Assembly (NCBI GenBank): GCA_963666345.1
Contig: OY762721.1
Coordinates: 3,072,001 to 3,136,000 of the forward strand
DNA length: 64,000 nucleotides
From: Desulfatiglandales bacterium
GTDB lineage: Bacteria; Desulfobacterota; DSM-4660; Desulfatiglandales; Desulfatiglandaceae
Direction of reading: 5' to 3'
The position numbers are program-made. This document shows positions 45,001-48,000 of the stretch, in pieces (position 1 is the first letter of the stretch; each line of letters starts with the position of its first letter).

Positions 45001-48000
45001 CCCGAAAAGCTCCGACTCTATAAGCGTTTCCGGAAAACCGCCGCAGTTTATGGCGACAAACCGTCTTTTACTACGTCTACTGAGGTTGTGAAGGGCACGG
45101 GCGAAAACCTCCTTGCCCGTTCCACTTTCACCCGTTATCAAGACGTTGCTCTCATTCAGGGCTATGGTAGGCAGGATGTCCAGGATCTGTTTGATTTTGT
45201 TGTTTTTGCTGATAATATCTTCAAAGGTATATGTCTTTTCTATTTCTTTTCGCAGCTCTTCAACGTGTCTCAGATCCCGGAAACTCTCCACCCCACCGAT
45301 CAGTCTGCCTTGTCTGTCTCTGAAAAGCGCCGTGGAAACGCTTATCGGGATCTGCGCCCCCTGTCTATTGGTGAGGTACACCGTAAGGTTTACGACCGGT
45401 CTGCCGGTTTCTATCGTATACTGTATGGCACAGGCATCTCTGCAGATGTTTGATTTAAAAACCTCATAGCAGCGGCGCCCCAGCGCCTCCGAGCGCGGTA
45501 TGCCTGTGATTTTCTCTGCAGCGCGGTTAAAGCAGGTAATACGCCACTCACGATCCACAGTAAAAACTCCCTCGCTTATACTGTGAATTACCGCCTCAAA
45601 ACGCTCAGGCGACGGCTCGCCCAGAAAAGCCGCTGAATTGAGTCTGTCCTTTTCCGTCATTTTTCCCTTTCACATTCCACCGTCTGCGGCTGACCGAGAG
45701 CAATACCGTGTGGTTGCCGGAACGACTTGCGTCGTAAAACCAGGGGTGGAAGGCGCCCTTTCAATCTAAGGAGTGGCATTATATGAGTGTCCCCTGGTCA
45801 ATGTCTCCATCCGCTTTTTTGAATATCCCAGGATTTCCCAGGCCTCTTTGTAGACCGGCCTTCCGTCCCTGTTAAAGGGATCAATAAGGATTTTTCGATT
45901 AAAAAAGGGAGAAGGCTTTAAGTGGCAGTCTTTACACCCTTTGGATCCGAGGGCAAATTTGCCGCTGACCACATTATGGCTGAGATCAAAGGGTTCGCAG
46001 CATTTGAACCCCCCGTCGCGCGTAGGCATTAGAGCCTTGTTCAATTGATTGTGATCGAGATAATATATCATGCCGCCCTTTACCAGAACAGGCGAGTGGT
46101 ACACGATCCGGCACCCGAATCTGTCCTTGCCCTCTGATATGGCCTTGAGGTATGTCGTTATTTCTTCCGCAGTGTTTACCTGTTTTGATCCGTTTAGCGC
46201 CTCCAAAAGGGCATAGTTGGTGATGGAAAAATTGTTCTTGGGTCCGGCTCCGGTGAAGTCCCTGATTCTCCACAGGACAATGGGGATAACACGATGAGAA
46301 GACCTGTCCCAATCTCCCCACCATACGACCTGCATAGGGTCAACCGGCTTGATCTTTCCTTTGTATTTTACAAACGCGGGGCACCAGCTGCTTTTCGGAA
46401 ACCTTCGGCAGGATTGAGCGGGATTCAGGGGATCATTAGATAAAAAATCCGAGGTCAGGTATCGGATACTGTGTCCTGTTGTCGCGTTGTCCATTACTGA
46501 AGTGGCTGCGTTGATTTTGTACGGGATATGACATGTTTCACAAGATATTTTATCGATATGCAGATCCGGGAATTTATGATCAGGTCTCGGCGCACGGCTG
46601 TCCGCTCCCTTTAAATGACAATCCGCACAGCCCTTCATGCTCACATCAATATCATCCCTTACGGACCCGACCAGTATGTCACCCTTGGCAATTTCATGAT
46701 TTTCACCGCCGCTGTGACAGTATGTGCATGATAGATTTTTTGCCTTGTGGACGTCTGTTGCGGCATCCCAGCTTCTGCCTCTTTTCATGCCGTCAGGCAT
46801 GACATGACAATTCCAGCAGTTTTCGTCAGGGACCTCTCCGGTTATGGATGCGGCAAGATCCGCCGGGTCGGCGACCCCCGTCTTTGTGTAATCAAGGCCG
46901 AATGAAAGGGCTTTAGCAGGCAGTGAAGGAAGGGCCGGTTTAGACGCCTTGAGATCGCGATACCATCCGGCCCCCACCATGGGTGCCTCGTAAAAAAATC
47001 CTCCTCTAAGGGCGAGCGTCCGTGCTTTCCAGTCATACCCTTTGAGGTGGCAGCTCAGGCAATCAGCCTCAATCACGCCGCTTTTTGTCCAATTTGATTG
47101 ATAATAGTCACCGTCAAGATAATTATCGCCTCTGGGTATGATATTATTGGCGGGGTCTCTTGCGAATTCATCGTAGCGATTTCCCTTGCGGTCATACTCG
47201 CCTGGCCCACCTCCCGGATGGCAGACGCCGCAGGTCTTTGCCCAAAAATACGATGACTTGTCAATGTCACAGCGCCTCATGTTTACCTTCCTTGCCAACT
47301 GGCTGGAATCCGAAGAGGGGGGTCACCACTTGCCGTACATGCCGCGTGAAATCAGCCAGGGGTTTTTGGAGTCCATGTCGTCCCTGACGATTATATTGCC
47401 CGCAGCATCGGTTCGACCATGTTGAAAGTGATAGGCGTTGGTTATGGCGTCATAATCATGACATTCCCCGCATGTGTTTTTGGGGCTGTAAGGGATGTTG
47501 CTCTCAAGCGGTATTTCATTTCCATCGTAATCCATCAGTATGACTTCCGGATGGGGTGCCTTCTCAGAAGCCTCGGAAACGGGAAACAAAAAGGGCATCA
47601 ATAACGTCCACAAAATAAAAAGAAAGCCAGATTTTCGCATGGGGAGACTCCTTTCACAGTTGGTTTAAACCGGTTTTCCTTTTATCGTACAGGTCCGGTG
47701 CCGTGAAATAAAAAAAGAAACCGCTATGGATCGGAAGATATATAAGGCTTCAATCCCGCAAATGATAAAGCCGCCCTTTCTCCGGTTCGGTGTTCGATCC
47801 TTCGGAATTTATCTCCTGTGTAATTGCTCTGCCTGATCCAGAAGAAGGGACTTGAAATGATCAAGCTTTACGGGATATCCCTGGATCGGAATCCCCATCC
47901 AATCGGAGTACTCCAGGAATTTCTCCGGGTTTTTAGCCATATACTTTTCAACATATCCGATTGCATCAAGTACGATCGCACCTCCCGTATGCCGGGGAAA

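Follow-up and report, generated by a model that had tools for sequence, protein, structure and literature searches.

The gene analysed here most probably encodes an exported, heme-based selenoenzyme of the octaheme tetrathionate reductase (OTR) superfamily. It lies on a 64,000-nucleotide stretch of contig OY762721.1 from a Desulfatiglandales bacterium (hereafter the window), and we put at roughly 80% the probability of the explanation as a whole: that UGA codon 106 is read as selenocysteine (Sec), that the product is exported, carries eight c-type hemes and adopts the OTR fold, and that it acts as a catalytic terminal reductase with Sec106 as the nucleophile. Proof that multiheme cytochromes with Sec are enzymes came only recently, with MccSep in 2026 (according to passages of PMC13510729); OTR and its unnamed relatives would form a second, much larger lineage with Sec next to a heme, in which the coexistence of Sec, Cys and 'dead' forms amounts to a natural experiment on what heme catalysis gains from selenium.

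It is strongly supported that positions 45766..47640 of the minus strand encode a single exported eight-heme protein. An ORF reading of the window gives an upstream ORF of 105 amino acids at 47323..47640, ending in ...GMYGKW, and a downstream ORF of 510 amino acids at 45766..47298 with a TTG start. Both are on the minus strand and share one frame, the TGA at 47323..47325 is their only separation, and homologue alignments span residues 1-624 of the read-through protein across the TGA; the preliminary description had joined the two gene calls, g02740 and g02739, in the same way. The 624-residue product has eight CxxCH motifs, at residues 57, 137, 194, 275, 305, 338, 367 and 569. One lies upstream of the TGA and seven lie downstream, and since the downstream part has no signal peptide, its maturation as the product of a separate gene would be impossible. 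The features are as follows.

45766..47640, minus strand: single gene for an exported octaheme cytochrome c with predicted Sec106; 624 codons plus a TAG stop, with one in-frame TGA and zero other stops.
47648..47652, minus strand: AGGAG ribosome-binding site, 8 nt upstream of the ATG, read from the sequence.
47569..47640, minus strand: probable signal peptide, approximately residues 1-24 (...VSEA/SE), judged by inspection of the N-terminus MRKSGFLFILWTLLMPFLFPVSEA.
47458..47472, minus strand: heme motif 1, C57GECH61, invariant across the family.
47323..47325, minus strand: UGA codon 106, almost certainly selenocysteine (GKW-U-PP), from column conservation across loci.
47289..47308, minus strand: SECIS-type hairpin UUCCAGCC-AGUU-GGCAAGGA over the codons for SQLAR; in the window clade, 3 bp, an internal loop and 3-4 bp.
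47287..47289, minus strand: K118, candidate counterpart of OTR Lys56, 19 residues upstream of heme motif 2.
47218..47232, minus strand: heme motif 2, C137GVCH141-PGGG, putative catalytic heme and counterpart of OTR heme 2 (CTSCHAGYG), from a weak heme 2-heme 2 match (E 8e-4) and the colinear structural alignment.
47047..47061, minus strand: heme motif 3, C194LSCH198 (EADCLxCH), from motif reading.
46804..46818, minus strand: heme motif 4, C275WNCH279, aligned to OTR heme 4.
46714..46728, minus strand: heme motif 5, C305TYCH309, with a profile-profile match to OTR.
46615..46629, minus strand: heme motif 6, C338ADCH342, with a profile-profile match to OTR.
46528..46542, minus strand: heme motif 7, C367ETCH371-IP, with a profile-profile match to OTR.
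45922..45936, minus strand: heme motif 8, C569KDCH573, from motif reading and profile alignment.
44272..45660, minus strand: PAS/sigma-54 enhancer-binding protein (PF00158, E 2.4e-68), directly downstream; possible regulator.

Judging from comparison of homologous sequences, UGA106 almost certainly encodes selenocysteine. The tRNA-Sec, SelB and Sec-containing SelD named in the preliminary description were all recovered from the genome, together with SelA: the tRNA scored 74.6 bits and was given a TCA anticodon by ARAGORN, SelB and SelA scored 393.8 and 608.9 bits, and SelD has one in-frame TGA at its GSG-U-ASK site. The earlier tally of homologues in 400 other Desulfobacterota genomes was reproduced exactly: 42 matches at E<=1e-60, 22 of them with a single TGA as the sole stop and 20 without any. 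The first 30 loci fetched include 17 with a TGA, and in all 17 the U falls in the U106 column. Of 110 homologous loci, 42 have U in this column, 31 have C and 37 have other residues, among them S (14), M (8), Q (5), L (5), F (3) and T (2). The TGA-bearing loci fall in at least six clades, none with a further stop; in a 98-row tree, Sec sits on basal branches of both halves, and at least seven changes are needed. In an approximately 95% alike strain from an independent metagenome, the site is bridged and the TGA kept, with no difference listed. These hallmarks of SelB-dependent selenoproteins are present: conserved coding sequence flanking the UGA, a downstream stem-loop, Cys homologues, and tRNA-Sec, SelA, SelB and SelD.

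Cys homologues had been thought to be lacking; this proved incorrect, since Cys outnumbers every other residue there in full-length representatives (28 of 76) and occupies the column in 31 of the 110 loci. Within the soluble half of the tree, which holds the window protein, Cys occurs in 0 of 29 non-Sec rows, and replacements by S, T, M, L, Q or F are confined to this half. In the soluble subfamily, Sec has given way repeatedly to S, M, L, Q, F or T and never to Cys, which is unusual for a catalytic Sec and shows that the protein is maintained even in its absence.

The predicted structure places the protein with OTR. The poor AF2 model reported earlier (pLDDT 48) was a product of its shallow alignment; a deeper alignment of 121 sequences gave pLDDT 90.1 and pTM 0.88, with residues 1-23 below 50. 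Modelling just the first 170 residues gave a poor result (pLDDT 51.5), which was set aside. Foldseek with the full model returned 1sp3, the OTR of Shewanella oneidensis (SO_4144), as the sole significant match (E 1.5e-8), and in VIA 1sp3_A stood at Z 13.1, with 333 residues aligned at rmsd 4.4 Å between model 27..619 and chain 1..438; the following row had Z 2.7. The deep profile A3 reached 1sp3 in the PDB at E 4.7e-17; phmmer with the protein and the profile of alignment A1 found only weak NrfB/NrfA matches there, and the N-terminal profile A5 failed to recover 1sp3. An hhalign comparison with 18 genuine OTRs gave a probability of 99.3 and E 1.1e-20, pairing hemes 4-7 one to one; it superseded an HMM-to-sequence alignment in which the hemes were out of register. 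The N-terminal part of the alignment is weak (11 columns, probability 24.6%).

The protein lies outside every NCBIfam and Pfam model, in agreement with the preliminary description, in which it matched none of the NCBIfam selenoprotein models. The best, TIGR04315 (OTR), gave 35.7 bits, far below the cut-off of 375 for the family proper, and NF040886 (ExtKL) gave no match to it or to any of 29 family members. TIGR04315 matched 28 of these 29, with a best E-value of just 1e-14. The core family has Sec as well: 28 of 67 genuine OTR matches have one in-frame TGA, and all 20 fetched genuine OTR loci have U (8) or C (12) 10 residues before the first Cys of heme 2. In the table of a 2026 review, TIGR04315 already figures among the selenoproteins annotated in GenBank (part of PMC13188914). 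In view of the fold, the profile match and the Sec in core OTRs, the proposal of a second, separate multiheme selenoprotein family was overstated; the model supports, instead, a divergent member of the OTR superfamily with the OTR fold and eight colinear heme motifs.

The likeness to OTR may extend to the predicted active site. Both proteins have eight CxxCH motifs in the same order on the same fold, and in each a Gly-rich turn comes right after the heme 2 motif (CGVCHPGGG in the window protein, CTSCHAGYG in OTR). An aromatic residue followed by Sec or Cys lies between heme motifs 1 and 2, with U106 in the window protein and U or C at 20/20 fetched OTR loci, positions that are likened by placement only. 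A conserved Lys precedes heme 2, with K118 19 residues before C137 and the OTR Lys 18 before its counterpart; K occupies the K118 column in 97 of 98 rows. In OTR, Lys56 is the ligand of heme 2, which is bound by C74xxCH78 (PMC3769277). There are differences, however. The window protein is approximately 180 residues longer, its N-terminal third has almost no sequence similarity to OTR, and it lacks the C-terminal hydrophobic tail of the fetched Desulfobacterota OTRs. Sec and Lys stand in opposite order, U-x11-K-x18-CxxCH in the window protein against K-x7/8-U/C-x9-CxxCH in OTR, so that 30 residues separate Sec from heme 2 in the former and 9 in the latter. The physiological substrate of OTR is still debated; a conserved Sec/Cys at its active site would therefore be a testable clue. 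A literature search for 'Cys64' of OTR found no mention of it.

The pentaheme polysulfide reductase MccSep/ExtKL (GSU2937-2936; NF040886) offers a second comparison, here drawn from passages of PMC13510729. It is also a periplasmic multiheme cytochrome c in which Pro follows Sec (DGUP, compared with KWUP in the window protein), its gene is split by gene callers at the UGA, and it occurs in Sec and Cys forms, mainly in Desulfobacterota. Its Sec works beside a heme, and its Cys-ligated heme 2 adjoins the Sec. Unlike the window protein, with eight hemes and a near-N-terminal Sec, MccSep has five hemes and carries Sec325 in a C-terminal Ig-like domain, and the Cys-ligated heme 2 is its own (same passages of PMC13510729). 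If the two proteins do work alike, this would be convergence rather than homology.

On this analysis, the product is likely to be a periplasmic reductase with Sec106 beside heme 2. The evidence strongly supports decoding of UGA106 by SelA, SelB, SelD and tRNA-Sec, guided by the AGUU-loop hairpin, with export of the product by its signal peptide and attachment of eight c-type hemes. The product would act as a catalytic terminal reductase rather than as a wire: heme 2 (C137GVCH), the probable counterpart of the lysine-ligated active-site heme of OTR, would receive electrons that the periplasmic cytochrome pool feeds into the heme chain. The mass per heme and the six conserved non-motif His residues for eight hemes, both given below, would fit such a catalytic class. 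Sec106, in the loop that joins heme motifs 1 and 2, like the invariant Sec/Cys of genuine OTRs, would serve as the nucleophile and attack an S-S, S-Se or metalloid-oxygen bond, and the resulting Se-substrate adduct would be resolved by heme-delivered electrons. Candidate substrates include tetrathionate- or polysulfide-type sulfur compounds, selenite and arsenic species. C124 was considered as a resolving Cys and rejected, being present in merely 12 of 16 clade rows.

A bolder form of this proposal, which we hold only tentatively and regard as rather doubtful, would place Sec106 in the distal pocket of a Lys-ligated catalytic heme and make the whole OTR superfamily one of selenium- or sulfur-assisted heme reductases, with Sec-heme chemistry that arose independently of MccSep and with relatives in ars islands that perform an undescribed heme-based arsenic redox step. 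On this reading, Cys would be unable to replace Sec in the soluble subfamily, since every loss goes to a non-redox residue, and its failure ever to do so would point to a selenium-only reaction.

Alternatively, Sec106 could be an axial ligand or redox tuner of one heme, selenolate ligated in the manner of the His/Cys hemes of TsdA and MccSep, in a protein that is mainly a carrier or sensor. Just six non-motif His residues are conserved for eight hemes, leaving two hemes without a conserved His partner; MccSep has its Cys-ligated heme 2 beside its Sec (part of PMC13510729), and Met occupies the Sec column in 8 of the 110 loci. We nevertheless consider a ligand role unlikely: most residues that replace Sec in this column (S, Q, L, F and T, in the numbers given above) are not heme ligands, and the invariant K118, with the OTR precedent, already supplies a ligand for heme 2. 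Furthermore, the window protein has approximately 8.9 kDa per heme, which suits enzymes; proteins with more than 7 kDa per heme are catalytic cytochromes, according to part of PMC7096707.

The long relatives raise another alternative, that the window protein, as its long Cys-form relatives apparently do, acts on arsenic or antimony in a heme- and Sec-based periplasmic metalloid redox step. In CbcL-type inner-membrane cytochromes, a multiheme c domain is fused to an FdnI/HydC-like diheme cytochrome b. Similarly, 8 of the 29 family members in A1 are 800-900 amino acids long and have a C-terminal PF01292/TIGR01583 cytochrome b domain, which in a profile search of the PDB matched 1kqf_C at E 2.4e-16; the c-part is likened to CbcL by architecture only. 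We counted ArsR, Acr3-type SBF, ArsP, LMW-phosphatase ArsC and ArsH-like FMN reductase as ars-type neighbours. At least one lies within four ORFs on either side in 14 of 23 Cys-form loci (at least two in 7 of 23), and Acr3 is directly upstream of one Sec form (L098). These long Cys-type, cytochrome b-fused relatives in ars-type clusters thus provide a lead to an arsenic-handling step. For the window protein itself, however, such a role is improbable, since ars-type neighbours occur at a single locus of the 18 with Sec forms and at none of the 22 other loci, with none in its own clade, and it has neither the cytochrome b domain nor a membrane anchor.

The neighbours of the window gene are the sigma-54 regulator, DUF1638, and TetR with efflux genes, and the gene neighbours in the window clade gave no metabolic clue. 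PAS-sigma54 proteins with approximately 36% identity lie within a few kilobases in loci L051, L053, L061, L063 and L088, and the adjacent protein is a possible regulator of the octaheme gene. A search upstream of the gene with the sigma-54 promoter consensus found none within 3 mismatches, and the window gave fewer hits than its shuffles. One metatranscriptome has near-identical contigs (47141-47313 and 47409-47512) that flank the UGA, none of which spans it; we make no claim of expression from them because of possible DNA carry-over.

The GCC-AGUU-GGC hairpin of the preliminary description is present downstream of the UGA, with its first G 20 nt after it. The window hairpin as a whole starts 17 nt after the UGA. 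Only Sec forms retain a hairpin with an AGUU loop at 19-22 nt from the UGA; the loop begins 22 nt after it (16 nt in one clade). The bSECISearch criteria are a stem-loop just 3' of the UGA, an apical loop approximately 16-37 nt away and a G in the loop, all of which are seen in the window hairpin; a search of the region against Rfam at E<=10 returned zero families. The AGUU loop occurs in 37 of 39 unique Sec forms, compared with 2 of 26 Cys forms and 9 of 31 others, and the Leu codon of the hairpin is UUG in 38/39, 3/26 and 13/31, respectively. Mean MFE was -10.7 kcal/mol for Sec forms versus -6.5 for Cys forms. Covariation was 0.210 against a shuffled mean of 0.143, a level reached in 0 of 500 shuffles, and nearly equal (0.203) with the partners slid by +1. 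In alignment A4, 76.1% of hairpin cells are paired, with two-sided changes in 19 cells, matched by 0 of 500 shuffles. The hairpin core overlaps the conserved SQLA codons, and the stability of the window hairpin by itself is unremarkable (z +1.22). An alternative SECIS with a 7-bp stem and a CCAGCC loop (columns 13-19 with 26-32) was ruled out for lack of covariation. Taken together, the alignments indicate that the hairpin is held by a synonymous-codon constraint in Sec forms only, with some apparently compensatory changes. Along with the column shared by 42 loci, the Cys in 31 and the full machinery, this constraint upholds the earlier reading of the in-frame UGA as a Sec codon. That the TGA is instead a true stop, one that separates two distinct genes or marks a newly disrupted pseudogene, as the split public gene calls and the unremarkable single-sequence fold might suggest, is very improbable and already contradicted by the comparative data: a single TGA column shared by six clades or more, whose loci lack further stops, Cys in that column, codon-level constraint confined to Sec forms, and Sec machinery in the genome.

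The Sec-containing gene is part of a widespread, routinely misannotated and unnamed branch of OTR-like enzymes, which may figure under another name in Data S1/S2 of PMC13510729 or in the full table of PMC13188914. The name OetABI was rejected, being that of a different system as described in part of PMC10553843. OTR and its unnamed relatives number 894 representative clusters at E<=1e-3, spread over a dozen phyla or more, and cluster names are almost absent, apart from 'hypothetical protein' and 'formate dehydrogenase gamma subunit'. Nearly all Sec forms are cut in two in the databases, as the window gene is by public gene calls at the UGA, so that respiratory inventories of sulfate reducers and sediment anaerobes would miss or misread them. 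Among 150 representatives, 45 start 5-29 alignment columns past the U column, and two stop exactly at ...GKW.

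The octaheme cytochrome c gene of the window is a single frame of 624 codons, and its sole interruption is an in-frame TGA.

47640..45766, minus strand: cytochrome gene
47325..47323, minus strand: TGA, codon 106 of the cytochrome gene

The 105 codons 5' of the TGA, which have an AGGAG ribosome-binding site ahead of them, encode what inspection shows to be a typical signal peptide, together with the first CxxCH motif. Seven further CxxCH motifs, but no export signal, are encoded by the 518 codons 3' of the TGA. Attachment of c-type hemes takes place outside the cytoplasm; therefore, the downstream open reading frame would be meaningless alone. 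The genome, a single contig of 4.16 Mb, carries complete Sec machinery (tRNA-Sec, SelA, SelB, and SelD), with a tRNA-Sec that scores 74.6 bits and has the anticodon TCA; the SelD gene, too, contains a TGA, located at the classical GSG-U-ASK site. We consider this gene model, with UGA read as selenocysteine (Sec106), to be as firm as comparative genomics allows (probability of roughly 0.95).

A six-frame search covering 400 further genomes from the phylum had been reported to yield 42 matches at an E value of ≤1e-60, with exactly one TGA in 22 and none in 20, and this tally was reproduced. Named public contigs contributed 80 additional loci. In the total set of 110 loci, U was the residue in column 106 at 42 loci, followed by C (31), S (14), M (8), Q (5), L (5), F (3), and T (2); none of the 42 U loci had a further stop codon within the match. 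The column was covered by 76 of 150 cluster representatives drawn from 1.8 billion proteins, and C was the commonest residue there (28/76). Another 45 of the 150 start 5 to 29 alignment columns past this position and 2 terminate exactly at ...GKW, which is the footprint of gene callers halting at UGA. In an independent metagenome, contigs of an approximately 95%-alike strain span the UGA, with nothing listed as differing at 47323-47325.

A SECIS-type hairpin is common to all Sec forms. It is closed by GCC/GGC over the codons of (S/R)-Q-L-A, and its AGUU loop begins 22 nt past the UGA, or 16 nt past it in a single clade. Since the peptide beneath the hairpin is also conserved among the homologues with Cys or another residue at the Sec position, synonymous-codon usage provides an informative test. 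Among unique sequences, the Leu codon was UUG in 38/39 Sec forms, 3/26 Cys forms, and 13/31 others, and the AGUU loop was present in 37/39, 2/26, and 9/31, respectively. The 45 nt that follow the column-106 codon fold with a mean energy of -10.7 kcal/mol in Sec forms, compared to -6.5 kcal/mol in Cys forms. Across 34 Sec-form RNAs, which are related sequences, an 8-pair helix was paired in 76.1% of cells, three of its pairs showed changes on both sides (C-G to U-A and C-G to A-U), and its 19 double-sided cells were matched by 0 of 500 shuffles; the same helix slid by +1 scored nearly equally. A competing hairpin was rejected for want of covariation. Variants with 5-nt loops and bulges occur (for example, at the homologous loci L040 and L107), and the stem in the clade of the window protein comprises only 3 bp, followed by an internal loop and then 3 to 4 bp. 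Taken as a single sequence, the window hairpin was no more stable than its shuffles, and an Rfam search of the region gave no matches. Three Cys forms (L095, L096, and L109) that are nested beside a Sec form (L035) retain a complete UUUCGCC-AGUU-GGCGA(A/G)A hairpin, which looks like a "fossil" SECIS left by a recent Sec-to-Cys change.

A quick maximum-likelihood tree of 98 rows, with the U column omitted and four short rows and eight duplicates removed, splits the family into half A (48 rows) and half B (50 rows). Half B consists of soluble forms of 600 to 650 aa. It contains the clade of the window protein (14 U rows and a single S row), another Sec clade (4 rows), and a 31-row clade typical of Syntrophaceae-like genomes (L023-L032 and L065-L094), where Sec persists in only 3 rows and has otherwise given way to S, M, L, Q, F, or T, never to C. 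The statement in the preliminary description that there are no Cys homologues thus holds for this soluble half but not for the family. In the Syntrophaceae-type clade, the usual flanking genes encode an esterase, in convergent orientation (18 loci), and a CoA ligase (14 loci). Replacement of Sec in that clade is accompanied by R155 to L, D157 to Y, and P108 to A.

Half A comprises long forms of 800 to 950 aa, with Sec on its basal branches. Many of these proteins, including 8 of the 29 members in a family alignment, terminate in an FdnI-like diheme cytochrome b (PF01292, E value of about 1e-19; TIGR01583, 1.3e-39; 1kqf_C, 2.4e-16), a fusion that makes them self-contained quinol-linked enzymes. 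Nested in half A is a clade of 24 Cys rows and 1 Ser row from Verrucomicrobiota, Acidobacteriota, Planctomycetota, and others. Cys-form long relatives lie amid ars-type genes (L105, L106, L110-L114, L116, L121, L123, L125, and L128-L130); counting ArsR, Acr3-type SBF, ArsP, LMW-phosphatase ArsC, and ArsH-like FMN reductase within four open reading frames on either side, at least one such neighbor was present at 14/23 Cys-form loci and at least two at 7/23, compared to at least one at 1/18 Sec loci and 0/22 other loci. Other recurrent neighbors of these Cys forms are Alginate_exp porins, DsbD/thioredoxin pairs, and RND pumps.

Searches with Pfam and NCBIfam gave only generic multiheme matches to the window protein, the best being TIGR04315, the model of octaheme tetrathionate reductase (OTR), at 35.7 bits (cutoff, 375); the NCBIfam model of ExtKL/MccSep, NF040886, did not match. 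An AF2 model built on a 121-sequence alignment was confident, with a mean pLDDT of 90.1 (about 90 near residue 106) and a pTM of 0.88. The single significant structure in Foldseek was the Shewanella oneidensis OTR, 1sp3 (E value of 1.5e-8), and an independent structure search aligned residues 27..619 of the model with 1..438 of 1sp3_A (Z score of 13.1 and rmsd of 4.4 Å over 333 residues; next row, Z score of 2.7). A deep sequence profile also matched 1sp3 (E value of 4.7e-17), and profile-profile comparison with 18 genuine OTRs gave a probability of 99.3% and an E value of 1.1e-20, with hemes 4, 5, 6, and 7 and three distal His residues paired one to one. The N-terminal thirds are scarcely alignable; the sole match there pairs the heme-2 motifs (TCGVCHPGGGP with RCTSCHAGYGW; E value of 8e-4, probability of 24.6%). 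Based on the fold and profile evidence and the subcutoff TIGR04315 score, the window protein very probably represents a divergent branch of the OTR superfamily that lies outside TIGR04315.

Both Sec-heme enzymes and Sec-containing OTRs have been recorded before. The former include MccSep/ExtKL, a pentaheme polysulfide reductase whose Sec325, on a DGUP loop, acts beside a Cys-ligated heme (Sci Adv 2026, PMC13510729); it offers a functional model, yet it has no kinship with the window protein in sequence or architecture. The selenoprotein table of a 2026 review (PMC13188914) includes ExtKL, a GSU2204-family CXXCH protein, UshA-like proteins, and the core OTR family TIGR04315 (as a GenBank-annotated selenoprotein); in the passages of it that were consulted, the present branch is not named. 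Searches of article texts on selenoproteins, selenoproteomes, and multiheme or octaheme cytochromes with selenocysteine yielded no account of the branch.

When TIGR04315 was searched over the same 401 genomes, 28 of the 67 matches above the cutoff had exactly one in-frame TGA. All 20 genuine OTR loci fetched from other Desulfobacterota (L131-L150) have U (8 loci) or C (12 loci) 10 residues ahead of the Cys that opens heme motif 2; the surrounding sequence reads NNF-[U/C]-I..SN..RCTSCH, and an invariant GK lies 8 to 9 residues upstream of the U/C. By arithmetic, this position corresponds to residue 64 of the Shewanella OTR, where Cys64 is reported to be an active-site residue. These 20 OTRs also have a hydrophobic tail at the C-terminal end. 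The catalytic heme of OTR is heme 2, bound via C74xxC77H78 with Lys56 as a ligand (PMC3769277), and it belongs to the N-terminal module (PMC9250108).

Between heme motifs 1 and 2, the window family, like OTR, has an aromatic-[U/C] pair (W105-U106) and a Lys that is invariant (K118, 97/98 rows) and lies at a similar distance from heme 2 (19 residues, compared to 18 in OTR). Unlike OTR, it has the Sec/Lys order reversed and approximately 21 additional residues. Only six conserved nonmotif His residues (H71, H298, H315, H355, H361, and H555) are present for eight hemes, and at approximately 8.9 kDa per heme the protein falls into the "peptide-replete," catalytic class defined in one review (PMC7096707). 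By analogy with OTR, we infer, with the balance tipping slightly in its favor, that heme 2 would be the active site, with K118 as its ligand and Sec106 as the neighboring nucleophile. A clade-specific residue, C124 (47269..47271), lies 18 residues past Sec106 and is Cys in 12/16 rows and Ser in the rest; it is possibly a resolving thiol, a dispensable one.

Immediately downstream of the cytochrome gene is a PAS/sigma-54 activator gene, and DUF1638, TetR, and efflux genes are also neighbors; PAS-sigma54 proteins are encoded close by in five further members of the clade, and in four a GAF protein is encoded upstream. A search with a sigma-54 consensus revealed no convincing promoter for the cytochrome gene. 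The best sigma-54-type match in the window, TGGCACGGATTGTGCT (44111..44126, minus strand), has one mismatch to that consensus and lies just 3' of the activator gene; window-wide, such matches were not above chance. Other genes in this part of the window are as follows.

47809..48534, minus strand: DUF1638 protein gene, immediately upstream of the cytochrome gene
43355..43717, plus strand: MazF/PemK-type toxin gene (PF02452, E value of 1.9e-26)
39293..42658, plus strand: large hybrid sensor kinase that combines a periplasmic solute-binding domain with several PAS domains, HisKA/HATPase, and a receiver domain

An 80%-identical copy of the DUF1638 protein is encoded approximately 1.4 kb 3' of the cytochrome gene at one homologous locus only (L053).
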